A stretch of 64,000 bases of DNA from Dictyostelium discoideum (taxonomy: Eukaryota), in assembly GCA_000004695.1 (NCBI GenBank), contig CM000150.2:4224001-4288000 (forward strand). Reading direction: 5' to 3'. Shown piece by piece: positions 9,438 through 27,450 of the stretch. Under the pieces are notes generated by a model that had not been told where the DNA came from, searched no databases, and saw only the letters and a list, made by a program, of their open reading frames with translations. How positions within the stretch are numbered: the stretch's first letter is position 1; every line of letters starts with the position of its first letter. A program made the translations under genes and the position numbers.

Positions 9438-10990
9438 TTTTTTTTATCATAACCAAATTTTCAATTAACCATTAAACAAAAAATAGATTGAAAATCTAGA
9501 AAGCTTTCCATCTTCATTTAATTGAATTGAGAAATCGAAACCATGTTCAGAATGTGTTATTCTACAATTTTGTGGTTAAAAATAAAAATAAAATAAAAAC
9601 TTCCTGTCAATCCATAAAAAAAAAAAAAAAAATTTGAAAAATTAAGAAAGAAAAATGTTAAAAGTTTTTTTTTCTTTATACATAAATATTTTTCTTTATT
9701 GCTATTTTAAAAAATTATATGATGAAATTATTTTTCAGTTTCAAATGAAGTTTGAATTGATTAAATAGGTTATTTTTTTATTTTTATTTTTATTTTTTTA
9801 TTTTTATATTTATTTTTTTATTTTTATTTTTATTTTATTATAAACGAATAAAAAAACCCTCTTTTAAAGTAAATTTTAACTTATTCGTCCATAGTATCCT
9901 GAAAAAAAAAAAAAAATTAAATAATCTATGAGGTGTAAAAATAAAAAAAAAAAAAGTTTTTGAGGGTTTTTTTTTTTTATTTATTTTTTTAGAATTAGAT
10001 TATTAATTAAATTTAAAATAAAAAAAAAAAAAAATTAATTATGAACTTAAAAAAAAAAGAAAAATAATATAAATAATTAATTTTTAATAATGTTAATATA
10101 AATTTTATATTAACATTATTAAAAATTAATTATATTATTTTTCTTTTTTTTTTTTATATTAAGTATTTAATACTTTTTGGTTTTTTTTTTTATTATCTTA
10201 AATTAAAAAAATATATTTGAACATATCAAAGGTTATAAAAAAAAAAAAAAAAATTAATATAACCCATCGTGAGGTCCGACTTAGATAACCTAATTTATTT
10301 TCTATTATTATTTTTTTCATTATTTTTTTAATTGACAACCATACACACACACACCATTTTATAAAATATTTAATTACATAAAATTTAAGGTTCATTTTCT
10401 TTTTTAATATTTATTAATTTTTTTTATTTAAATAATTTTTTATACCAAAGTATTTTCCATTTAAAAATAAATAAAAAAATCAGAGTTTTAGTCCAATGAA
10501 AATTTTAAAAACTACTAATATCTCTTCCCTATGAAAATATAATAAAAATAAAATTTAGTTAGTAATAATTAAAAATACTATTTAATAATATTAATAAAAT
10601 ATTTTATACCAACAAATATTAAAGTACGCATCCAGTCAAAAGGTACTTGTATTTTTGAAAGTAAAGAACCTAGTCTAGTTAAATATGCACTCCTCCAACT
10701 AAAAAATTTTTAATTAGTATTTATTTATTTATTTTTTATATTTTTATTTATTTATTTGAAAACTTACGTAATAAAACCAATAAAACCACTTAAATCAAAG
10801 AAATCAGTTTGTAAAATACCACTTTTTTTACCAGTATAAGCTAATAAACCTAAAAATTTAAAAGCAAATGGTTTTGGTGGATTTGGATTTAACTTTTCAA
10901 GATTATTAAATTCTTTTGCTAAATAAACAGCAGATTGCGAAGCTACTTGAGCAGTTGGTGGATAATTTTTATTTTCAACATTCGTACTAT
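9438..10990. repeat. Segmental duplication copy B, made of flank module F (9438..9897) plus a copy of the A segment
   Basis: 9897..10990 matches 811..2340 at about 95% identity, with indels. 9438..9897 matches the inverted 18480..19055. Copy B ends abruptly at 10990 inside the exon-2 homology. It also carries a roughly 90-bp palindrome at 10059..10150 that copy A lacks. Confidence 0.7.
10620..10990 (-). pseudogene. Truncated NDH-2 pseudogene fragment (copy of the last exon, last intron and 240 bp of exon 2)
   Basis: 10751..10990 matches exon 2 of the intact gene at 2051..2340, including the GTAAGT donor. The copy carries non-synonymous changes (..FGDCAN.. becomes ..FGDSTN..). The homology stops at 10990, so it has no upstream exons and no start codon. 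Confidence 0.65.
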
Positions 10991-11260
10991 CACCAAAACT
11001 AAAAAAAACAATTATAAAAAATTAATTATAAATAATTAAATGCAAGTAGTGATTAAAAAAAAAATAAAAAAAATGAATAAAAACAAAGAAAATATTTGTT
11101 TTTTAACAACGATTTAGTTTTAATTTTAATTTTTATTTACTGTTTTATTAATTATTTTACTTTAAAAAAAATTTCACTATTTGTATTTTATTATTATTAT
11201 TATTATCTATATATTTATATTCATTCATTTATTTATTTATTATATATTTTTTTTATTATT

Positions 11261-11297
<37 letters not shown>

Positions 11298-11322
11298 TTT
11301 ATTTTTTTTTTTTTTTTTTTTT

Positions 11323-13343
11323 TTAATCACTACTTGTATTTGAAGCACTATTAATATTACTTTCTTCTTCATCATCAGCACCTCTTGTAGTTTGACCTTT
11401 TGAAATTGATTCATTAACTTCTAATTCAATATTTTTACTTTCAAATTCTTTTCTTGAATTATTATTTTGATTATTTTGATTATTTTTAGAATTTTTAGAA
11501 TTTGAAGTTGGATTTGTACCACTACCATAATGAGTCATTGAATTAAAGTTTATAATATTATATTTCAATAAGAATGGTTTAATATTTGGATGATTTAAAA
11601 TTTTAGAATGAATCCAAATATCACGTGCATTTTGAGATGTACCATATATACAAAAGAAAGTTATACCAAATAATCTTATAAAGAAATAAAATACAAAATA
11701 GGCTACATAATTTGGACCTGCCATTAAACATTCCTTACCTGTATCTGATAATAAACACATTACATAATCAACTACTTTTTCTTTATATTCTTTGCTATGA
11801 CTTTCATTATCAAAATTAAATATAAATAAATAATAAAATGATCCACCAACTAATGTTACACATAAAAATGGTTTAATTTGTAATAATATCATTCTATTAT
11901 CTTTTGTTGAAACATTTTTAGTAATCTATTATAACCACCAAATATTTATTGTGTTAGTAATATTAATAATTTATAAAATATATATATATATATATAATAA
12001 ATTAATGTATACTTTACTTTATAAATTTCATAAATTACTAAAATAATACAAACTGAACCAATTGTTAAAGCAATACCACATGGTATCCAAAATACACTGT
12101 TTACATACCAAGTTTTTCTAATCCAACATGCTAATGAACCAGTACCAGCCATAAATGCATTGCCTGCTAATGGGATAATGACAGATATTAATGAAGCAGT
12201 TGTATTGAAAATTATGAAATAACGAAAATCGAAAAGTTTAATTCTTTTTACAACAGCGAATAAACAAATTGACATTGTTGTCCACCAGAATACACCATTT
12301 GTAATACCAATATGAAATAGGGCACCTGTTGCACCACATGAAACATCTGATTGAACTGCAAATCTACCAGGTTCTGGACATAGTAATTTCTCATAGCCAA
12401 TTCCATAGGTAACTATATCCATCATTGTAATTATAATAACAGATGCCGAGAAAAAGGTTATACAATAATTATATTTACTTCTTCTATGATTTAGTATACC
12501 AAATGTAAGTACATTATAAATTGAACATACAAAACTAATTGTTGATAATATTTTAGACATATTATACATTTGATGCCATTTCTTCTCTGTATAAATTGGT
12601 GCAACACAAGGCAATACGCAATTAGTTGGTGTTAAATATGTGTAACCTCTATCTGCCGAATATTTAGGATCCGATGAATTGAATAATAGTAATGGTGATG
12701 GACAAATTTCAATTAATTCACTAGTTGTACTTTTATTTTCAAAAGTTGCCAATGGATCTGAACAAGGTACTGGGAAAAATCCACCATTAGCTGTGAACCC
12801 GTAATCGGTTAAATTATACAATGTTGCAATTCTTGGAAATTTTAATGGATCTGAACAATTTAATGATGCACCCAATGATGAACAATTGGAAACCATTCTT
12901 TCACATGCTGATTTGCATAATCTTTGTGGTAATGATACACTTTTTATTGGTGTTATAGTTGTAGGTGTTTGAAAACATGGTGGAAAATAAATATCACAAA
13001 TTCCAAATTCTGCAAAATTTAAATCAAAACATTTCGATTGCAAAAATGTTAAAGAGATAAAAGTTTTTTCAACAATTTTCTGATTTATATATTGAATTGT
13101 TATATTTTTACTTGTATAAATGTTTTTATAATTTGGTAATTTTTCATTACATAATGGTTGATCAATTGAATCACCTATATAATTTGAACAAGTTGCTGTT
13201 GGGTCAACTAATCCTGCTCCATATCCATCTGGTAAATTTAATCCAAATGTTTTAATATTATTATTATTATTTACAATTAAAATTATTAAAAATAATTTTA
13301 AAATTATTATTATTTTATTATTATTATTATTTTTATTAAACAT
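11323..13343 (-). CDS. Frizzled/Smoothened-like 7TM receptor (fsl family)
   Basis: Two exons: 12018..13343 and 11323..11925. The first has a signal/TM N-terminus and a Cys-rich Frizzled CRD (..TATCSNYIGDSIDQPLCNEK..CFDLNFAEFGICDIYFPPCFQ..LCKSACERMVSNCSSLGASLNCSD..), followed by hydrophobic helices (..SVIIPLAGNAFMAGTGSLACWIRKTWYVNSVFWIPCGIALTIGSVCIILVIYEIYK). The donor is AAA|GTAAAG and the acceptor AG is at 11927-11926 (phase 0). The second exon continues with helices (..FLCVTLVGGSFYYLFIF..) and a Ser/Asn-rich tail. Confidence 0.75.
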
Positions 13344-14290
13344 TTTTTTTTTATTTTATTTATAAAAAAAAAAAAAAAAAAAAAGAATAAAAAAAAATTT
13401 ATAAATTTATTATTTAATTTTCTATTTTTAATTATTTATTATTATTCTAAAATATTTATTTTTATTATTATTTTATTATTTTTTTTTTTTTATTTTAATT
13501 TTTTTTTTTATTTTTTTTTTATTATTTACAGTGATTAAAATTATAATAATAATTAAAAAGATGGTTTTTTTTTTTTAATAGGTGTGAATAAAAAAAAAAA
13601 AAAAATTGAAATAGAAGATATTTATTCCAATTCTTTTATTTTATCAAAAGTAAAATTGTGCAACAGCCGGCCAATTCTCTTGGTTTTAAAGAGAAAAATA
13701 AAAAAAATAAAAAAATAAAAAATAAAAAAATATCTTTTTTGGGGCCAATCTTAATTTATTTTTATCAAAAGGTTAAAGTTCCAAAAGAATGTTTTTTTAT
13801 TTTTTTTATTTTTTATTTTTATTTTTATTTTTTTTTTTTTTTCTTTTTTACTTTCTCTTTTTTTCTTTTCTTATTTTTTTAATTTTTTTTTTTATTTTGT
13901 GATTAAATTTTTTTTTTTTTTTTTGTGAATGAAAAAATACTTTTTTTTTTTTTTTTTTTTTTTTATTATAAATAAACTGATCAGCAGTGAATAAAATTTT
14001 AAAATTAAAAAAATAAAAAAATAAAAAAATTTAAAAATAAAAAAAAAAAAAAAAAAATAAAAAAACAAAAAAATAAAAATAATTAAGATTTTAGTTTTTA
14101 TTATTTTTGTTGAACAAAAAAAAAAAAAAAAAGTTTTTCGAAAAAAGCATTTCTATGGAAAGTGGGCCTAAAAGTTTTAAAAAAAGGATGGTGGGAAATA
14201 ATCGCAAACCTTAAAAAATTAAAAAAACCGTTCAAAAAATCACCAATTAAAATTGTTATAAAAATAAAAGATATTTTCTCAATTCTATTA

Positions 14291-14327
<37 letters not shown>

Positions 14328-14400
14328 AAAAAAAAAAAAATTGTTTATTTGTTAGTTTTTGTTTAAAGAAATTTATTTTAGTATAATGAAATGGTCTATG

Positions 14401-14436
<36 letters not shown>

Positions 14437-14796
14437 TTTAATTTTTTTTTTTATGAAATTTGATAACATAATTTCTTTATTTTTATATTTATTATTTTAA
14501 TTATTTTTTTTTTTCTTTATTCTTTCTGTTTTTTAAAAATTTATCGAAATTAAAATCAATTATTTTATTATAAAAACATAAAAATTTCGAGGAGATATTT
14601 TTTATAAAAATATAAAATTGAATAAAAAAAAACTTTTTTTAGGATTACACAAAAAAAATCAACTCGGTATGAAATCGAAAAAAATTAACAAAAAAAAAAG
14701 AAAAAAAAAATTAGAAAATTACAATGAAAAGTTTTTTTTTACGATTATAATAATAAAATTATGTATAGCGGGTTTAAATTAATATTGTTTGGTTTC

Positions 14797-14830
<34 letters not shown>

Positions 14831-14877
14831 TATTTAAACATAATATTATTTTCACATTTTTATTTTTATTTTTATTT

Positions 14878-17800
14878 TTAATTTTCTGTTTTTTCATCTT
14901 TATTATTTTCATCTTTACTATTACTTAATGAAGAAGTTGAGTCGCTACTTGTTGATGAAGAATCGTCTTCGTTGGCTGAAGAAGTTGTAGTTGATGATGA
15001 TACACTTGAAGAAGTATCATTTTCTTTATTATCTTGAGCATCATCCTTTAATTTTGGAGGTTCTGATGATTGTGGTGGTTGTTGTTCTTCAGTTGCAATA
15101 ACTGTGGTTTTATCATCCTCACCTTCAGTTGCAGTTGTAACAATTGTATTAACTTGGACTGGTTCAACTTGAGTTATTGTTGTAGTTGTGGTTGTTGATT
15201 CTTTTTGATCTTCTTGTTCTTCTGGTTTTTTCTCTTCAACAACAACATTTTCAGTCATAACAACTGGTACTAAAGTTGTAGTGATAGTTGTATCTGATGT
15301 TTCAGTTGTTGTAGTAATTGGTTGAACCTCTTCTTCAACTACTTTTTTTTGTTCTTCTTTTTGTTCTTCTTTTTGTTCTTCTTTTTGTTCTTCTTTTTGT
15401 TCTTCTTTTTCAACTACTTTTTCTTCAATAATTGTTTTTTCTTCAACAATTATTTTCTCCTCAACAATTGGTTCAACTACTTTTTCTTCAATAACAATTG
15501 GTTTCTCTTCAACAATTGGTTCAACTGCTTTTTCTTCATTTATAATAACTGGTGCAATTACTTCTTTATTAACTGGAATAACAGTAGATGAAGATGATTC
15601 ATCTTTTTTTTCATTATTATTAGTAGTAGTAGTGGTTGAAGTTGGTTTAAAACCACCATCAACAAAATCAGCACCATAAAGTTCTTTAATTTCATTTTGA
15701 TATTTAATACTAACATTTCTTCTTTTTAATTTTTTAGTTGGAGTTAATTCAGAAGTTTCACCAGTTTCTTGGAATTCAACTGGTAAAATTTTAACTTTTT
15801 TAATTGTTGAAACATTTGGAAGTTTTGAATTAATATCTTTCATTTGAGAATCAATATAGGCAATGAAATGTTTATCTGTTGAAGCTTCTTCCATTGATTT
15901 TGGTAATGGATGAGTGTAACCTTGACCTGGTAATAACTTGAATAAATCAGCATTGACAGTGACCAAAGCAACTAAATATTTTTGACGATCACCAATTACT
16001 ACGGCTTGTTCAACACCAATGATTTGACGAATGAAACCTTCAATCAAGGTTGGTGAAATATTTTCACCACCTGCTGTAATGATTAACTCTTTCTTTCTAT
16101 CGGTGATGAAAATGAAACCATCCTTATCGATATGACCGACATCACCAGTATGAACCCAACCATCTTTATCAATGGTTTCCTTTGAGGCCTCATCATTCTT
16201 ATAATAACCAACAAAACAGTTTGGACCTCTAACCAAGATTTCACCATCACTATCGACAATCACTTCACTACCTTGCATTGTTTTACCAACTGAACCTGTA
16301 CGATTGAGTGGATAACCAACACTTTGTGGACCACTAAGTTCACTCATACCATAGGCTTCACAAACTGTAATACCTAAACCCAAGAAAAACTCTAAAGTAT
16401 CAATTGAAATTGGTGCAGCTGCTGATGCTAATAATTTACATTGTTCTAAACCTAAATTCTTAATAACTTTCTTAAAAACTAATGCATTTGCAATACCATA
16501 TCCCATTGGTCTCTTTTCACCTTTTTGAATCTTATAACCACCTTCAACACCTTTCTTTTGTGCCCAAGATACAATCTTTTTACCAATACCACCTTTTTGA
16601 GCTAAAAGTGATTGAATTTTAACTTGAATTTTTTCCCAAACTCTTGGTACACCTTTATAATAATAAAAAAAAAAAAAAAAAAATAATATTAATAAATATT
16701 TATATAATATAAAAATATATTTTTAAAATAAAATAAAACTTACCAAAGAAAATTGTTGGTCTAACTTCTTGTAAAGTATCTAATAATGTACCACTTAAAG
16801 CAGTTTTTTCAGCAAAACTAACTGGAAAACCAAAAACTATTGGAGCATATAAAGAAACGATTTGTTCAGCAATATGTGATAATGGTAAATAACTAATGAT
16901 TCTTTCAGTATGAGGTGCATCAATGTTTACAACATCATAACCAATTGTATGAACTGTCCAGAGTACATTGGAATGAGTTAACATAACACCTTTTGGTAAA
17001 CTTGTTGTACCACTTGTATAGATAAGAGTTGCTAAATCATTTGGTTTAATTAATTTTGAATGTTTTTCTAATTCACTATTTTCAATATTTTTACCTAATT
17101 CCATAAATTGTTCCCAAGTATAAACAAATCCTTGATATCTATGTGCCATTGTTGCAGGTGTAACTGTTGTTGTTGCTGCTTTTGATGAACCAGCATCAGC
17201 AGTGGTGGTTTCAGATTCTTTACCAGATGATTCATCAACTTGACCTGGTACTGGATCCATAATAATACAAGCTTTAATGTTTGGTAATTTATCTCTAATA
17301 CTAATATATTTATTTAATTGGGTGACATCTTCACAAAATACAATTTGAGCATCGGAATGAGTTGCAAAATATTCACATTGACTTGGTGATGAAGTTGTAT
17401 AGACACCAGTTGGTAAAGCATTACAATGAATTGCACCTAAATATGCAATATGCCATTCTGGTGAATTGAAACCAATAATATTAACACCACTTCTTGAATG
17501 AACACCTAATGAAAGAATTGATTTACCTGCCATCAATACTTCATTTCTATATTGTTGCCATGTCCAACCCTTCCAAACGTTATCACGTTTAACTCTCATT
17601 GCCATTAAATTTGGATGTTTATTAGATGTATATTCTAAAGCTTCCATAACTGTACTAGGCATTGGAATTGTTTTAATTGGTCCTTTTTTAACATTTCCTG
17701 TTGTTGATGTTGGTGTTGTTGGTTGTGCTTCTGTTGTAGTGGTTGTAGTAGTAGTAGTTGTAGTTGTAGTAGTTGTTGGTGTTGGTTCTACAGTAGTAGC

Positions 17801-17889
17801 AGTATTAGTTTCTGCTGTCTCTGGTTTAGTTTCAATTGTAGTTGTTGTTGTGGTGGTTTCTTCAATAACTTTGACATCTTCTTTTGACT

Positions 17890-17893
<4 letters not shown>
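14878..17893 (-). CDS. Long-chain fatty-acyl-CoA synthetase (AMP-binding family) with low-complexity N- and C-terminal extensions
   Basis: Two exons: 16744..17893 and 14878..16652. The donor is G|GTAAGT (16743-16738), the acceptor AG is at 16654-16653, the phase is 1, and the join reads ..RPTIFFG|VPRVWEKIQ... The AMP-binding signature is LIYTSGTTSLPKGVMLTHSNVLW. The core motifs are GYGMSE, ..GEILVRGPNCFVGYYKNDEASKETIDKDGWVHTGDVGHIDKDGFIFITDRKKELIITAGGENISP... The protein is 974 aa. It carries an N-terminal poly-Thr run and C-terminal (EEKxVE)/(EEQK)n repeats plus an acidic Ser/Thr tail. Confidence 0.85.
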
Positions 17894-17927
<34 letters not shown>

Positions 17928-18167
17928 ATTTATTATTTTATTTTTTTTATTTGTTTGTCTTCTTTATAAATGAAAAATTATTATTATTAAATTATTTTTT
18001 AATTTGTTTTTATTTTTTTATTTTTTTATTTTTAAAAAATTATTATTATTATTGTTATTTTTTTTTTTTTTATGACAAATAAAAAGTAATAAATTAATTT
18101 TATATATATATGTGTGTGTGTGTGTTTTTGATAAGGGATGAATAAACGATTGAAAGGTATGGTAGAG

Positions 18168-18200
<33 letters not shown>

Positions 18201-18479
18201 ATTTTTTTTATTTTTTTTTTTTTTTTTTTTTTTTTCAAGATTATTTGAATTTTTTTTATTTTTTTAATTTATTTTTAATTATTTTAATTTTTTTAATTTT
18301 TTTTTTCATTTTTTTTTTGAAAATTTAATTTATTTTTGTCATGTTGTCATGAGATTTTTTAACGGATTTCTAAATTTCACGTGTTATCATGGATTCGTTT
18401 TTAAAATTTTTTTTACAGCGTCAAATATCATCATGACTTGAAAAATAATCCAATTTTGGTTTGGGAAAAATATGAAAAT

Positions 18480-19055
18480 AATTTTTTAATTTTTTTTTTT
18501 TACTTTTTGTCAGGATACTATGGACGAATAAGTTAAAATTTTCTTTAAAAGAGGGTTTTTTTATTCGTTTATAATAAAATAAATAAAAATAAAAAAATAA
18601 AAATAAAAAAATAAAAAAAAACAACTAAAATTATAACCTATTAAATCAATTCAAACTTCTTATCAATCTAAAAAATAATATTATCATATAATTTTTTAAA
18701 ATAGTAATAAAGAAAAATATTTATGAAAAAAGAAAAAAAAACTTTTAACATTTTTCGTTCTTAAATTTTTTTTTTTATTTTTAATTTTTCTATTTTTTTT
18801 TTTTTTTTAAGGAAGTTTATTTTTATTTTTATTTTTAACCACAAAATTGTAGAATAACACATTCTGAACATGGTTTCGATTTCTCAATTCAATTAAATGA
18901 AGATGGAAAGCTCACTAGATTTTCCTAATACTTGAAATAACCAAACCTAAAATGGAAAAAAACAAAAATAAAACGAAAAAAATTTTCATTTCAATATTTG
19001 AATATTTTATTTTTTGTTTAATGGTTAATTGAAAATTTGGTTATCATTATTAAAA
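18480..19055. repeat. Inverted copy of flank module F (the reverse complement of about 9438..9900)
   Basis: For example, 18511 'ggatactatggacgaataagttaaaattttctttaaaagagggttttttt..' is the reverse complement of 9840..9900. Likewise 18841..18920 is the reverse complement of 9480..9560, and 19010..19050 is the reverse complement of 9438..9480. Confidence 0.7.
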
Positions 19056-20034: not shown

Positions 20035-22332
20035 ATGGTACAACCAAATGTAAATAAAAAAACAAATAATAATAATAATAAAGTTATTACAAAATCGATT
20101 CATTCAAATAAAGGAAAATTTGAATTGAAAAAGAAACCTGTACAATTACAACAAATATCAAATGATAAAATTAATGATAATAATAATTTAAAAAATCAAT
20201 TAGAAATTCCAAAAGAAATTCCAAAAGAAATTAAATTACAAAAAGAATCATTACCAGTATTTACAGCAAAAGATGCACTTTTAAAAAATTTTAAAGAACA
20301 TTCAACTGTTATTATTATATCTGAAACTGGTACTGGTAAAACAACTCGTAAGTTTTTATATATATGTATATATTTTAAATTTTTTAATAATATGTTTGTA
20401 AAAAAAATAAACAAAAAACAAAAAACTAATTTAAAAATAAATAAAAATAAAGAAATACCACAATATTTATATGAAAATGGGTATAAAGATAATGGTATAA
20501 TTGCAATTACACAACCAAGAAGAGTTGCAGCAGTATCAATTTCGAAAAGAGTTTCACAAGAGATGGGAGTTGAATTAGGTGATCAAGTTGGTTATTGTGT
20601 TAGATTTGATGATAAAACCAATGAAAAAACCAAATTAAAATATATGACAGATGGTATGTTAGTTAGAGAGGCAATGTTAGATTCATCATTATCGAAATAT
20701 TCTGTGATTATATTGGATGAGGCACATGAGCGTACATTAAATACTGATGTTTTATTTGGGTTATTAAAATCGATTCAAAAGAGAAGAGAAAAGAAAAACC
20801 CATTAAAAATTATTATCATGTCTGCGACATTAGATGCTGAATTATTTTCACAATATTTTAATAATGCACCAGTGTTATATATTGAGGGTAGACAATTCCC
20901 AGTGCAAATCTATTACACTGAGGAAATTCAAAAAGATTATGTTGATGCAGCATTAATTACAGTATTACAAATTCATATAGCTCATTTAACAGATAAATCA
21001 ATTAATAAAGAAGAAGAGGAAGATGGAGGAGACATTTTAGTATTTTTAACAGGTCGTGATGAAATTGAAAATCTTGAAAAACTTTTATTAGATAGAATAC
21101 CACGTTTACCAGTTGGTTCAAAAGATTTAATAGTTTGTCCAATCTTTTCAGCATTACCACAAGAGCAACAAATGAAAGTTTTTGAGAAAGCTCCAAAAGG
21201 AAGTAGAAAAGTGATTTTAGCAACAAATATCGCTGAAACTTCTTTGACAATCAATGGTATTCGGTATGTTGTAGATAGTGGTGCTGTGAAATCTAAAATT
21301 TTCAATCCGAAAATTGGTATTGATTCATTGAATATTATACCGATTTCAAAGGCATCAGCAAAACAAAGAACTGGTAGAGCTGGTAGAGAATTCGAGGGTA
21401 AATGCTACCGTTTATATACTCAAGAAACTTTTGAAAAATTAGATACCTCTTCAATACCTGAGATTAAACGTTCAAATATTGCAAATGTTATATTACAATT
21501 GAAAACCATTGGCATCAATGATATTTTATCATTTGACTTTTTAGAATCACCACCGGTTGCATCGGTTATAAAATCATTGGAACTTTTATTTTGTTTAGAT
21601 GCAATCTCTGATAATGGATCATTGACAGAGTTGGGTAAAAAAATGGCATTATTCCCACTAGATCCAATGTATAGTAAAACTTTAATTAAATCCATTGAAT
21701 TTGAATGTTCAGAAGAGGTTTTAATAATCATTAGTATTCTATCGGTTGAATCTATATTTTTCACACCAAAAGAAAAGAAAAAAGAAGTTGAGGATGTAAA
21801 GAAAATCTTTTTCTCACCAGATGGTGATCATATAACATTTTTAAATGTTTTTAGAGAATTTCAAAAATCAAAACCTCAACAACAACAACAATGGTGTTTT
21901 GATCATTTTATAAATTTAAAATCAATGATTAAAGTTTTAAATGTTTTTGAACAATTGGTTAAATATTGTATCTCTTTAAAATTACCAATAGTTTCTTGTG
22001 GTTCCGATTTCGATCGTATTAAAAAATCATTTATTGGTGGTTTCTTTTTAAATACTGCAATTTTACAACCTGATAAAAAATATAAAACAATGGTTGATAA
22101 TAAAGAAATTCAAATTCATCCAACATCTTTCTTATTCGATCAAAAACCTCAACATATTCTCTATAATGAATTAACAATCACTACAAAAGCTTTTGCTAGA
22201 AATATTATACCAATTGAAGGTAGTTGGTTAGCTGAAATTTGTCCAAAATATTATGGTACAAGATTAACAAAACAACAACAACAACAACAACAACAAAATT
22301 CAATTCAATCAATTGATACTTTTAAAAATTAA
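20035..22332 (+). CDS. DEAH-box ATP-dependent RNA helicase (DHX-type, with HA2/OB C-terminal region)
   Basis: Two exons: 20035..20347 and 20453..22332. The intron (20348..20452) begins with GTAAGT at 20348 and the acceptor AG is at 20451-20452. Splicing regenerates motif I, GTGKTTQIPQYL. Motif II is ILDEAHERT (DEAH), III is MSATLDA, IV is LVFLTG, V is TNIAETSLTI and VI is QRTGRAGR. A C-terminal poly-Gln run follows. Confidence 0.9.
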   Translation: MVQPNVNKKTNNNNNKVITKSIHSNKGKFELKKKPVQLQQISNDKINDNNNLKNQLEIPKEIPKEIKLQKESLPVFTAKDALLKNFKEHSTVIIISETGTGKTTRKFLYICIYFKFFNNMFVKKINKKQKTNLKINKNKEIPQYLYENGYKDNGIIAITQPRRVAAVSISKRVSQEMGVELGDQVGYCVRFDDKTNEKTKLKYMTDGMLVREAMLDSSLSKYSVIILDEAHERTLNTDVLFGLLKSIQKRREKKNPLKIIIMSATLDAELFSQYFNNAPVLYIEGRQFPVQIYYTEEIQKDYVDAALITVLQIHIAHLTDKSINKEEEEDGGDILVFLTGRDEIENLEKLLLDRIPRLPVGSKDLIVCPIFSALPQEQQMKVFEKAPKGSRKVILATNIAETSLTINGIRYVVDSGAVKSKIFNPKIGIDSLNIIPISKASAKQRTGRAGREFEGKCYRLYTQETFEKLDTSSIPEIKRSNIANVILQLKTIGINDILSFDFLESPPVASVIKSLELLFCLDAISDNGSLTELGKKMALFPLDPMYSKTLIKSIEFECSEEVLIIISILSVESIFFTPKEKKKEVEDVKKIFFSPDGDHITFLNVFREFQKSKPQQQQQWCFDHFINLKSMIKVLNVFEQLVKYCISLKLPIVSCGSDFDRIKKSFIGGFFLNTAILQPDKKYKTMVDNKEIQIHPTSFLFDQKPQHILYNELTITTKAFARNIIPIEGSWLAEICPKYYGTRLTKQQQQQQQQNSIQSIDTFKN

Positions 22333-22984
22333 TTAATTAATTAATTAAATAATAATAATAATAAAAAAAAAAAAAAAAAAATTATCTAAACATTATATAA
22401 TATAGTGTAAACATCCAAAATAAAAAAGTAAATTTATAAATGTTTAATTTGGATTTTTATTTTTATTTTTTTTTATTTCTTCATTATCTGAATATTCACT
22501 TGAGCTATTGAGCCATTATTAGTTGATTGAGAAATAACTCTTTTTAAATTATTTATAAAAGGATCAACAACCATGGGTTGAGAGTTGAATTAAAAATTTT
22601 TTTTTTTTTTAATTTTATAGTTTAATTTGTGTATACCAAATGTATCTATCCACTTTGATTTTTAATTTTTATATGTTTTTTTAAAAACAGTGTCGTTTTC
22701 AGATTAATTAAATTGTAGGTGAATTGAAACAATTTACGAAATTATACTTTTTTATCTGAAACAATAATCTTTGGTAATTAAAGAATTTAGGAGGAAATTA
22801 TAAATTATAATATTATAATATTTTTTTTTTTTTTTTTTTTAATATTAGTACTTCCTTTTTTTTTAGTGAATATATCGAGTTGAGCGATTGGTTGTAATTT
22901 GAAGAATAGGCATTAATATTATTATTTATTATTTATTTGTATATGAATTTGTGGATGTAAAACAAATGTCATTTAACTGAGATG

Positions 22985-23160
22985 TGGCAACACCAAAATA
23001 ATTGACTTTGATCACTTCCTCCATTGAATGGTAGTGAAGATTGGCGGCGGAACTGGATCATATCATATGATCCAGTTCCGCGGCAAATCTTCAATATGAA
23101 ACAATGGCAGAGATGATCAAAGTCAATTATTTGGAATTGAAATTTCAGCATTAAAGTGAT
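22985..23160. repeat. Roughly 176-bp imperfect palindrome (long hairpin) with a perfect 17-bp inverted-repeat core
   Basis: The core is gcggaactggatcatat-c-atatgatccagttccgc, centred at about 23071. The outer arms 'ccaaaataattgactttgatca' and 'tgatcaaagtcaattatttgg' are perfect reverse complements. The arms between them are imperfect. The element is distinctly GC-richer than the surrounding AT-rich intergenic DNA. Confidence 0.6.
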
Positions 23161-23305
23161 GTGGTTTATTTTAAAAAATCTTTTTTTTTTTTTTATCCTT
23201 TAAAGTTTTTATTTTATTTTATTTTTTTTTTTTTTTTATTTTGAAAGTTTTTTTTGGATTTTTTTTATTTTTTTTTTTTTTTAAATTTTTTTAATAATTT
23301 TAAAA

Positions 23306-24404
23306 ATGTTAAAAAAAAAACAAAAAATTAATAATGATATTAATAATAGAATATTTTCTAATTATTTAGAATTACAAATTATATTAAAATTAATTGATTA
23401 TTTATTAATAAAAAAGAAAATAATAAATGATAATAATAATAATAATAATTTAAATTATTATTCAATTAAAAAATTATTTTTAAATGAAAATGAAATTTTA
23501 ATTTATTCAAAAGTTTCAAAAAGATGGTATAATACAATATCATTAGTTATTTCAAATAATATTTTAGATAATGAAAATAATTATAATAATTTAAAAAATT
23601 GGTTTAAATTAAATAATGTAGAAATGATTACATTTAAGAGTTTTAAATTAAAAATAAATCAAAATTATTCATTAATTAAAATTGAAAAGAAATTATTAGA
23701 TAATTATTTTTTAAATCAAGTTTTAATAATAAATTATGAAAATAATTATTATAATCACTATGAAAAGAAAAGAATTTTACCAACTATTGAAAAATTATTA
23801 AAATTTAAAAAATTAATATTTAATATTGATTTTAATGAAAATATTCAAAAGTTTATAAAAGAATTTCAAAATGAAGAAAATATAAATAATAATATTGATT
23901 ATGATAAAGTTATATTTAATAATAATAATGAATTTAATTTTAATATATTATTAGATATTGATTCAAATCAATTAAAAGCATTTGATAATTATAATTATGA
24001 TCAAAACGAATTAAATTGGAATAAAATTATAAATGTTAATAAATTAAATATATTGGGTGGTAATAATATTGATAGTTATGATAATAATAATCATAATTGT
24101 TATGATTATGAAGAAAAAATTGATTTAAAATATATAAACCAATACTTTTTACCAAAGTATTTAAAATATGATGCAAATTCAATAAATTATGATGATGAAA
24201 TGGTACATATGAATTATTCACCAATATTTTCATCAAATTTAATTGGTAATCAAATTAAATCAATTAAAATTAAATCAAATGACCATGTTGAACCATTTTA
24301 TTTAAAAAATTTAGGTCAATTATTGAATTTACAAACTTTATCAATACCAATTTCATTTCATGAAATTATTAAATATTTAGAATATAATTTAAATCAAGAT
24401 CAAC

Positions 24405-24487
<83 letters not shown>

Positions 24488-25252
24488 TGTAATGAATATT
24501 ATCCAAAATTTAAAAATTATTTAAATATTTTAAATGATTGGAATGAAATGATTGAATCATTTATAAAATTAATAGAATTAAAAAATTTAAAAAATTTAAC
24601 TTTAATAAATTTTTGTGATAATGGTTTAAATTGTTTTAGTTCATCAAATTTTAATAAACTTGAAAATTTAAATTCATTTCAAATTATTATAAATTCATTA
24701 AATAAATTAATGAAATTTTCAATTAATAATTTAAATTGTTTAAAATTAGTAAATTTTGATTTTATTATTAATTCAAAATTGTTTTTATCAGAATTAGAAA
24801 ATAATGACAATAATTCAAAAAAATTAAAAATTTTAATTTTTAAATTTAAAAATATATTAAAAGATTTTGAAAGTGTTGAAAAATGTAATTTTAATTTAAA
24901 TAATATTAAATCAATGTTTGATTATTTAATTTCTAAAGTTTTTACATCACCAAATTCTACAATAAATCATTTTAAAATATCAATTTATAATGATTTACAA
25001 TTTCAATTAATAAATTATTTTTTTACAACCCTATTAAAATATAAAGATCAACTCAACAATAATTTATATTCAATCTCTGTTTCATTCAATAAAAAAATTC
25101 AGTTTAATCAATTAATTAACTTTATTAATTCATTATCTTTTTCAAAAAAAGTTAAAGAATTTAATTTAAAAAATTTAAATAATATAAAAATTAATCAAAA
25201 AATGACTCTTATTGAAAATGTAAAAATAAATATAAAAAATAAAATAAAGTAA
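23306..25252 (+). CDS. Asn-rich protein with an F-box-like N-terminus and LRR/FNIP-like repeats (hypothetical)
   Basis: This is a single 648-aa ORF starting at an ATG in A-rich context. The F-box-like stretch is ..IFSNYLELQIILKLIDYLL..(poly-N)..LFLNENEILIYSKVSKRWYNTISLV. Leu/Asn-rich repeats such as LKNLKNLTLINFCDNGLNCF and LNLQTLSIPISF follow, with a (AAT)n poly-Asn block at 24411..24486. No catalytic motif was recognised. Confidence 0.5.
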
Positions 25253-25797
25253 ACTAAATTTAAAATTATTTTTCCTTGTGTATTTTTAAATATTATTTCT
25301 ATTTTTTTTATTTTTTTTTTATTTTTTTTTTTAGATATTTGATAGATCCAAATTTCTGAAAAAATAATGTTTATTTTATTTTATTTTTTTTTTTTTTTTA
25401 GATTTTTTAAAATTTGTTGGATTTTATAATAGATTTTATGTGATATAATTTTAGATTTATATCTTAAATAAATTAATCCACAATTACTCTATTTGGTAGG
25501 TCTATTTTTGGTATACAATTATCTTTTGATTATTTGATTTTTAATTGAGAATAATATTGTAATCTAATGTTGCATCTTGAATTTTTTCATCACTGTATAT
25601 TTTGATTAAAAATCCATGTCCATATCTGGTGTAATATCAATAGTTTTTATATGGAAAATGTCTAGGGAAGGTCAAAGTTTATAGTTTATGAAATTTTGAA
25701 TTGAAGGGAGGGATATTATTGTAGACATTAAGTTTTTTTTTGTATGAAAAGCATGCTTAATTTCCGAAGTTCGGATTTTAGAAGTTCCATAAAAAAG

Positions 25798-25869
25798 CTC
25801 CCTGTCCGGGAATTGAACCCGGGCCTTTCGCGTGACAGGCGAAAATCCTCACCACTAGACCAACAAGGA
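25798..25869 (-). tRNA. tRNA-Asp (anticodon GUC)
   Basis: The minus-strand sequence is TCCTTGTTGGTCTAGTGGTGAGGATTTTCGCCTGTCACGCGAAAGGCCCGGGTTCAATTCCCGGACAGGGAG. It folds as a cloverleaf with a 7-bp acceptor stem, anticodon stem TTCGC/GCGAA, loop CTGTCAC (anticodon GTC), T-arm CCGGG/TTCAATT/CCCGG and discriminator G. It is near-identical in layout to animal tRNA-Asp-GTC. The internal A box is TAGTGGTGAG and the B box is GGTTCAATTCC. Confidence 0.95.
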
Positions 25870-26553
25870 TAGTTGATATTTTTTTTTATTAAACAAAATT
25901 TTTATCAAAAATAACAAAAAGGATAATCTGTGAGAGATTGATGGCTAGTTAAGACTTTAATAGGGATTGATAATTTCTATTGTAATAAATTATCCAACAT
26001 GAGAAATGGTGTCTTATCTTATAATCACCAATATTTATGGTACATTCTCGATCATTTTATCAGGGTTATATAGTATCATGAAACACAACCAAATAGTGAA
26101 TTTTAAATAAATCCCTGAATCTGTCAAACATTTAGATAGGTTATGTATTCAATAGATATAAGGTTAGATGATATACCAAAATAATTTAAATGTGTCACAA
26201 TAATGAAATTGTTCCCAATACTAATTCGAAAGAATAGAAATGGTAGAGGGTGGTAGGTTTTGGTGAAAAGCAATTTTTGAAATTTTCAAGAATTTATAAA
26301 CAAATAATATATGAATTCATTATCCACTGTCCAAATTACTTCATTTTAGAAGCTTATTAAAACACTTTTTTACTCGTTAATTCTTCAAATTATTTAAAAA
26401 AATTCCACATTATTTCAAATAGAGAAACACCGTGGGTGTTAATGTTTTTTTTTTACAAATAAAGAAATAAGAATATCCTGATTTTAATTTTGGAAGAGTC
26501 TTAACCAATAATTTGGTAATTGAAGTTCGGATTTTTAAATTTCTCAAAAAAAG

Positions 26554-26625
26554 CTCCCTGTCCGGGAATTGAACCCGGGCCTTTCGCGTGACAGGCGAAA
26601 ATCCTCACCACTAGACCAACAAGGA
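26554..26625 (-). tRNA. tRNA-Asp (anticodon GUC), second identical copy
   Basis: This 72-nt sequence is identical to 25798..25869. About 50 bp of 5' flank and about 45 bp of 3' flank are also conserved between the two copies. Confidence 0.95.
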
Positions 26626-27450
26626 TAGTTGATGTTTTTTTTTTTTTATTCAAAATTTTTATCATAAATAACTTTGTTCTACCCATTTAATAATTAAAAT
26701 ACTTACAAGACCCTTTGTTCTACCCATTTAATTAATTACTAAAATGGGACAAATTTCGAAAGAAATAAAGTCACTAAAAAATATTATTGTTTAAAAATTA
26801 TTTTTTTTAACACAATTAAATAAGCTAGGTTGTTTATTAAAAAAAATTAATAAATCTCTAAAAAAATAAGGCCAATTGGAAATTTGACCATGTATAAAAA
26901 ATATAAAAAAAGAATGTATTTTAAAAAAAGAAAACCAAATAATTTAATCATCCAACTCCAACAAAGTTATTCATCATTAAGATATTATTATAAATAATAA
27001 TGAAAAAAAGCAAAAAAATTAAAGATTATAAATACATTTTTTTTTTATTTTTTTTTTTATTAATAAATAAATAATTATATTCCGGGTATTGAATCTATGT
27101 AATCTCCTATTAAAATGATTTGTATATTTGTTTGTAATAGGGAAAAAAAAGAATTCCAGGAGAGGAAGTTTTCTTTTTTTTTTTTTTTTTTTCTTTTTTT
27201 TTATAAAAGTTATATATGAATTATTATTATTATATTATTATTATTATTATCAATATTTATAATTATTTTATAAATAGAGAATGGATATAAGTTGTAAAGG
27301 AGGGGGATATATATAAAAAACAATCATTTGTTTTTTTGTTTTTTTTTTTTTTTTTTTTTTTAGGTTTGTTGATTATTATATAGAATTATGTAAACTATTT
27401 AAGATATTGAAAAAAAAAAAAAAAAAGTTTTTTAAAATATAATTTTATAA

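Follow-up and report, generated by a model that had tools for sequence, protein, structure and literature searches.

Genomic context of the palindrome

The window analysed here is a stretch of 64,000 nucleotides that was taken to be part of Dictyostelium discoideum AX4 chromosome 1. A gene for a DEAH-box helicase of the DHX33/Dhr2 type occupies 20035–22332 on the + strand, and its spliced protein is identical to XP_646548.1 (Q55CD3) from D. discoideum AX4. The intron at 20348–20452 (105 nt, GT...AG) has no in-frame stop codon, which is why the list of open reading frames gives a 765-aa ORF where the spliced protein has 730 aa. The downstream gene, also on the + strand, is an N-rich ORF of 648 aa with a GC content of 12% (23306–25252), in which we found no Pfam domain.

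Between these two genes lies a palindromic sequence, 660 bp past the helicase stop codon and 171 bp ahead of the downstream ATG at 23306. The initial annotation of this DNA, which was made by eye, had placed a GC-enriched palindromic element in the intergenic region downstream of the helicase and had pointed to Dictyostelium; the placement, the enrichment and the organism all hold. The palindrome has a GC content of 38%, compared with 18% for the intergenic DNA on its left, 7% for that on its right and 26% for the helicase gene. Intergenic islands of high GC content in the AT-rich D. discoideum genome often prove to be RNA genes with a function or regulatory elements, and a GC content above even that of the nearby coding DNA counts against reading the palindrome as functionless. 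The block immediately to its left (22866–22992, + strand) is also GC-richer, so that 22866–23162 has 32.7% GC overall; were the hairpin transcribed, this block would be the 5′ part of the transcript.

An ORF of 60 aa reads through the palindrome on the minus strand (22969–23151). It had previously been called spurious, and our judgement is the same: it has no homologue, its frame is not kept in the related D. cf. discoideum and no called gene is recorded for it. A real small gene on the minus strand was rejected on these grounds. When the palindrome was translated in six frames and compared with 5.8 billion proteins, dictyostelid proteomes included, there was no match at E ≤ 10 among 1,770 word-sharing candidates. 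The lack of homologues in all six frames, together with frames that differ between AX4 and D. cf. discoideum, means that the palindrome lacks the hallmarks of a coding sequence. Both arms, read outward, form open, protein-like frames. We considered whether the arms had been copied from a coding gene and rejected this, as no parent protein was found at E ≤ 10, the frames are shifted in D. cf. discoideum relative to AX4, and the window yielded no paralogue by blastn or tblastx.

Anatomy of the palindrome

An inverted-repeat scan defined two arms of 68 nt each, the left arm at 22996–23063 and the right arm at 23065–23132 (both given on the + strand), which are 84% complementary. They are separated by one unpaired C at 23064, which becomes part of a 3-nt terminal loop in the predicted fold. 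The whole quasi-palindrome, with CC...GG ends, extends from 22993 to 23135 (143 bp), and it is the sole long G+C-containing palindrome within the window. The element had initially been given as about 176 bp long. The inverted repeat is where it was said to be, but the palindrome proper is only ∼137–143 bp, the remainder consisting of a few weak flanking pairs.

Pairing quality differs along the arms. At the centre, the 17-nt sequence GCGGAACTGGATCATAT occurs exactly once per strand, at 23047–23063 (+) and 23065–23081 (−), where 0.00 chance matches were expected. The perfect 17-bp core described in the initial annotation is therefore exact on both strands, with a 17+1+17 arrangement covering 23047–23081. 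At the base of the stem, 22996–23014 pairs perfectly with 23114–23132 over 19 nt. The outer arms had been described as pairing perfectly over strings of 22 and 21 nt; this is true of the 19 nt, but the two quoted strings differ by one A in an A-run and so pair with a 1-nt bulge. The stretch between outer stem and core (23015–23046, pairing with 23082–23113) holds all 11 arm mismatches, as expected from the earlier description of the middle arms as imperfect. The mismatches all lie at arm positions 19–50, a clustering with P of about 0.001. Within the middle arms there is an 8-bp stem, TGAAGATT/AATCTTCA, which is kept in D. cf. discoideum and lengthened there to 12 bp.

Fold energy, which the initial annotation named as a way of examining the palindrome, proved strong on both strands. 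Over 181 nt folded as RNA we obtained −90.1 kcal/mol for the + strand (z −13.2) and −87.2 kcal/mol for the − strand (z −11.6). The 143-nt palindrome gave −81.5 kcal/mol (+) and −79.1 kcal/mol (−) as RNA, or about −0.57 kcal/mol/nt, and its + strand gave −50.8 kcal/mol (z −13.5) when folded as single-stranded DNA. Fold z-scores ranged overall from −11.5 to −13.5 for RNA of both strands and for DNA. The near-equal folding of the two strands as RNA, together with the strong fold of the + strand as DNA, points to symmetry at the DNA level rather than to an RNA with a defined strand.

The palindrome in related strains and species

We compared the orthologous locus from six assemblies (L001–L006). 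L004 is an AX4-like assembly (99.96% identical), L001 and L005 are two other D. discoideum strains, L006 is D. cf. discoideum, L002 is D. dimigraforme and L003 is D. firmibasis. A protein search for further alleles with the downstream ORF as query returned only the AX4-like assembly.

The palindrome of L004 is identical to that of AX4. In L001 and L005, all that remains of it is GACTTTGATCACTTC, corresponding to 15 nt of the left arm (AX4 23004–23018), with the right flank joined to its right. The ∼138 bp missing on that side (23019–23156) take in the inner part of the left arm together with the centre and all of the right arm, and a further ∼202 bp (22802–23003) are missing directly to the left of the 15-nt remnant. 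D. cf. discoideum keeps both inner arms (AX4 23018–23119, 81–85% identical) and part of the right half of the outer stem. The partner of this half is missing there, as the outer left arm falls within a 481-bp segment (22537–23017) that D. cf. discoideum lacks. The GC-richer block to the left of the palindrome (22866–22992) is absent from L001, L005 and L006. Conservation in relatives had also been named as a check on the nature of the element; we could trace the palindrome to D. cf. discoideum, and nothing related to it was found in D. dimigraforme or D. firmibasis by BLAST, nhmmer or an inverted-repeat scan.

Trees were built from the helicase gene (2,207 ungapped columns) and from the downstream gene (first 931 ungapped columns). 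They agree on the topology ((L001, L005), (AX4, L004)), with L006 outside this group, followed by the two other species. AX4 and L006 each carry both arms, L001 and L005 retain sequence of the left outer arm, and L006 retains sequence of the right one. Remnants of both arms are thus found in lineages that diverged at the base of the discoideum clade, which means that D. discoideum and D. cf. discoideum inherited the complete palindrome from a shared ancestor. It has been eroded independently at least twice, once in L006 and once in the lineage of L001 and L005; AX4 keeps the most intact copy. Both erosions share a breakpoint at about AX4 23018 (within 1–2 nt; L006 7526–7528, L005 about 7655), which is the junction of the perfect outer stem and the first mismatches. 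This position may be a break hotspot determined by structure.

Two further observations concern the surroundings of the palindrome. A GC-richer block of ∼180 bp elsewhere in the same intergenic region (22431–22612) is present in AX4, partly present in D. cf. discoideum (to 22536) and absent from L001 and L005; it carries a minus-strand ORF of 34 codons, the frame of which is not conserved in D. cf. discoideum. Synteny past the helicase is lost in D. firmibasis, where a tRNA-Asp repeat follows ∼430 bp after the helicase and the gene for the 648-aa protein is not there (L003 10261–12573). In D. dimigraforme, the intergenic gap downstream of the helicase measures ∼3.8 kb (L002 10411–14235).

Changes to the core and to base pairing

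The allele of D. cf. discoideum folds at −29 to −31 kcal/mol (z −2.1 and −2.9). Its −29 kcal/mol compares with −67 kcal/mol for the aligned AX4 stretch and −81.5 kcal/mol for the full 143-nt AX4 palindrome. When the 52 base pairs predicted for AX4 in the aligned stretch were followed into D. cf. discoideum, 31 were unchanged, four were kept with a change on one side, 14 were broken and two fell at gaps. One pair showed a compensatory change, being C-G in AX4 and T-A in D. cf. discoideum. With 14 of 52 pairs broken, duplex pairing was not maintained in the sister lineage.

The differences between AX4 and D. cf. discoideum are concentrated in the left core (23047–23063), where 10 of 18 aligned columns differ, compared with 11 of 79 elsewhere (Fisher P = 4.5e-4). 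The right core differs in 3 of 17 columns. The left core of AX4 is the exact complement of its right core. On the simplest reading, one event rewrote one arm from the other, probably by template switching or gene conversion. We favour placing this overwriting of the left core in the AX4 lineage; we infer its direction from these alleles, since no further outgroup carries the region. Such patchy homogenization would explain why the mismatches of AX4 are confined to the middle of the arms.

Interpretation of the palindrome

The interpretation we favour, to which we give about an even chance, is that the locus holds a non-mobile DNA quasi-palindrome, found at one locus in the sequences searched, which is old, decaying, locally re-perfected and deletion-prone. 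No sequence-specific function is evident. The inverted arms, the 1-nt spacer and the similar folding of both strands are the hallmarks of such an object, and the clustered mismatches, the replaced left core and the two deletions with breakpoints near 23018 are consistent with the way such objects would evolve. A local inverted duplication would have produced the palindrome before D. discoideum and D. cf. discoideum diverged, and substitutions would have caused the arms to decay, leaving the mismatches now seen in mid-arm. Patches would have been re-perfected by copying one arm from the other, through intrastrand template switching or gene conversion, and in the AX4 lineage this would have given the 17-bp core. 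A hairpin or cruciform of either DNA strand would also be expected to provoke deletions with breakpoints at or inside the arms; deletions of this kind may independently have shortened the palindrome in D. cf. discoideum and left almost nothing of it in the two other D. discoideum strains. Among the candidates put forward in the initial annotation, a cruciform-prone DNA structure fits best, because the deletions cluster at the palindrome.

Correction of quasi-palindromes by intrastrand template switching and deletion stimulated by palindromes have both been described in bacteria, yeast and human. The locus resembles the former in that the differences are clustered in one arm and make that arm the exact complement of the other, and it resembles the latter in having breakpoints at or inside the arms that arose independently across lineages. 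Unlike the template-switch cases from bacteria, yeast and human, the putative event here is read from four alleles only, and the direction of change is the one that we infer. The kind of object is thus known, and this instance is, as far as could be checked, undescribed; literature matches to the sequence strings of the hairpin led only to unrelated papers.

Any RNA transcribed across the region would form a stem of 68 bp, potentially open to cleavage by a Dicer-like enzyme, which makes the locus raw material for a hairpin-RNA gene. That it already is one, namely a young proto-miRNA gene or endogenous siRNA precursor, is possible though doubtful. Transcription by RNA polymerase II would begin at the G that follows a T-rich tract (at about 22848 or 22866) and proceed along the + strand through the palindrome, ending near the ATTAAA at 23146, and a Dicer-like enzyme (DrnB with RbdB, or DrnA) would cut the 68-bp stem into one to three successive 21-nt duplexes from the stem base, with the perfect outer 19–21 bp and the perfect core as the most productive parts. 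Suitable tracts are present 127–145 nt upstream of the palindrome: a T20 tract followed by AATATTAG (22821–22848, + strand) leads to the G at 22848, and a second T9 tract (22856–22864, + strand) is followed by G22866. A T-rich tract ending in G has been reported upstream of the start sites of D. discoideum pri-miRNAs, 14 of which carry it (PMC6161686), but the motif is generic in the D. discoideum genome. The fold energy of −81.5 kcal/mol, or −0.57 kcal/mol/nt over 143 nt, is below the −0.2 kcal/mol/nt used as a folding criterion for miRNAs (PMC6161686 Table S1) and lies within the range of accepted D. discoideum pre-miRNAs (−56 to −88 kcal/mol, −0.43 to −0.70 kcal/mol/nt), the length being just above their 83–133 nt. 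Like the pre-miRNAs ddi-mir-1183 and ddi-mir-1177 (PMC6161686, PMC11014262), the palindrome is intergenic, as are most D. discoideum miRNA loci, is a GC-rich island relative to its flanks, and is lineage-restricted with gain or loss of the whole locus between close relatives. Long D. discoideum hairpins can give two adjacent miRNA pairs, and the one compensatory pair change also favours an RNA. Against this, none of 34 published mature sequences, a set without mir-7099, mir-7100, mir-7101 and the thug-S miRNAs of Avesson 2012, matched the palindrome, the best having 6 mismatches, and no 10–12-mer of the hairpin turned up in the supplementary files of the catalogues from 2018 and 2024. Chromosome 1 is represented in the lists by mir-1181 and mir-7103 alone, both of which fall outside the window, and by no locus at all in the high-confidence set of 2024. 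The strain is a heavily sequenced one, and the lack of the locus from these catalogues also speaks for the quasi-palindrome. We further considered whether the locus is ddis_Cluster_1065, a candidate that was rejected in PMC11014262 (144 nt, −82.75 kcal/mol), and dismissed this, as no stretch here gave that energy and the closest value was −81.5 kcal/mol. Permissive and gathering-threshold searches of Rfam 15 gave only sub-threshold matches to generic miRNA hairpins (the best being MIR4371, at 24.3 bits against a gathering threshold of 110), so that a known RNA family was rejected; a scan of the whole window with Rfam returned two tRNAs only. The perfectly symmetric centre, the 3-nt loop and the similar fold energies of the two strands are typical of a DNA palindrome and not of a matured miRNA hairpin. 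Whereas changes in mir-1177 lie in bulges or keep pairing, those in the palindrome broke pairing in the sister lineage, and two D. discoideum strains have lost the locus by deletion. The last point is not decisive, since dictyostelid miRNAs are mostly recent and real loci are also gained and lost as whole modules; known Dictyostelium miRNA loci show equal whole-locus turnover and imperfect orthologous hairpins (PMC11014262), and poor conservation is thus no proof of lacking function. Selection for double-stranded RNA is another possible cause of the flawless stretches of 19 and 17 bp. Young MIRNA and other hairpin-RNA loci of plants form by inverted duplication of a target gene, and the palindrome shares with them a long near-perfect foldback, evolutionary youth and proneness to loss; unlike them, it has neither a parent gene (six-frame search, E ≤ 10) nor paralogous DNA in the window. 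A combination of the two readings, in which template switching re-perfected the AX4 copy into a Dicer substrate yielding phased 21-nt duplexes while the sister lineages lost their copy, would make the locus a strain-polymorphic hairpin-RNA gene between birth and death; we regard this as unlikely.

The remaining explanations invoke a mobile element or a promoter element. A miniature DNA transposon of the foldback or MITE-like type, perhaps akin to thug and representing an old insertion later partly excised or deleted in other lineages, had been among the initial candidates, and we consider it very improbable. The sequence is short, non-coding and made wholly of inverted repeats, as are MITEs and the thug-S and thug-T elements; it varies in presence among strains, and its GC content is above that of its surroundings, as might be the case for imported DNA. 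Terminal inverted repeats are present in the perfect outer 19 bp, as they trivially are in any palindrome. Elements of the thug type make up about 0.1% of the D. discoideum genome (PMC5633606), and thug-S copies are a source of small RNAs. However, a scan of all boundary choices (22985–22999 on the left, 23128–23144 on the right) for the target-site duplication that the initial annotation had suggested seeking gave only trivial matches of 2–3 nt (AAA, TGG, AA). None of the alleles lacking the palindrome represents a clean empty site, as L001 and L005 keep an internal 15-nt segment of the left arm and the gaps reach well beyond the palindrome. An insertion polymorphism, which the absence of the segment from L001 had suggested, was rejected in view of the copy in D. 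cf. discoideum and of the trees from both flanks, which polarize the difference as loss. The 64-kb window, the six related loci and the metagenome, viral and prokaryote collections that were scanned yielded no second copy; searches with the terminal 19-mer and the core gave single chance matches in metagenome or viral contigs, none extending past ∼32 nt, and none in prokaryote genomes. Small-RNA tags derived from thug-S, with which the comparison was made in place of consensus sequences, do not occur in the window, and a reported intron within thug-S suggests an element of >140 bp with a gene model. It is likewise improbable, if a little less so, that the palindrome is a cis-regulatory element of the downstream gene, acting either through a dimeric protein bound to the perfect 35-bp core or through a cruciform that modulates transcription. 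Its distance from the ATG is within promoter range, it is a GC-rich island in DNA of 7–18% GC, and its core is a perfect dyad. Yet arms of 68 nt are unneeded for a protein-binding dyad, conservation in D. cf. discoideum is lowest in the core, and the two D. discoideum strains without the element still keep the downstream gene.

If the locus is merely an unstable palindrome, it offers a clear small case of decay, one-step correction and recurrent deletion within one AT-rich species complex, and a warning that not every hairpin-like GC-rich island is an RNA gene. If small RNAs are made from it, it would reveal a hairpin-RNA locus that some D. discoideum strains have and others lack, with a direct bearing on the origin of the mostly species-specific dictyostelid miRNAs (PMC11014262). 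A true hairpin-RNA gene would show in nature how miRNA ‘modules’ are created and discarded within one Dictyostelium species. The strains sequenced so far include both carriers and non-carriers of the palindrome.

Other features of the window

A second true palindrome is present at 10048–10158. It has a 1-nt centre and arms of 55 nt that are 85% complementary, with the inner ∼30 nt perfect, and it is AT-rich. The occurrence of a second palindrome with a 1-nt centre in the same window suggests that such structures recur in the D. discoideum genome.

This second palindrome lies inside the left breakpoint interval (9952–11024) of an AX4-specific inversion. The inverted segment of ∼7.7 kb (11024–18769) carries a gene for an AMP-binding enzyme and a Frizzled-like gene. 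It has the opposite orientation in L001, D. cf. discoideum, D. dimigraforme and D. firmibasis, so that the inversion is derived in the AX4 lineage; judged by gene order, the same inversion is apparently present in L004. Inverted repeats of ∼430 bp, which are 84–88% complementary, bracket it (9490–9921 and 18491–18924). We looked for a link between the inversion and the GC-rich palindrome and found no connection, the right breakpoint of the inversion being separated from the palindrome by ∼4 kb and by the helicase gene.

Two tRNA-Asp(GTC) genes with identical scores lie on the minus strand at 25797–25869 and 26553–26625. They are contained within a direct repeat of ∼150 bp (25764–25914 and 26522–26664), which is 93–99% conserved in D. 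dimigraforme and D. firmibasis.
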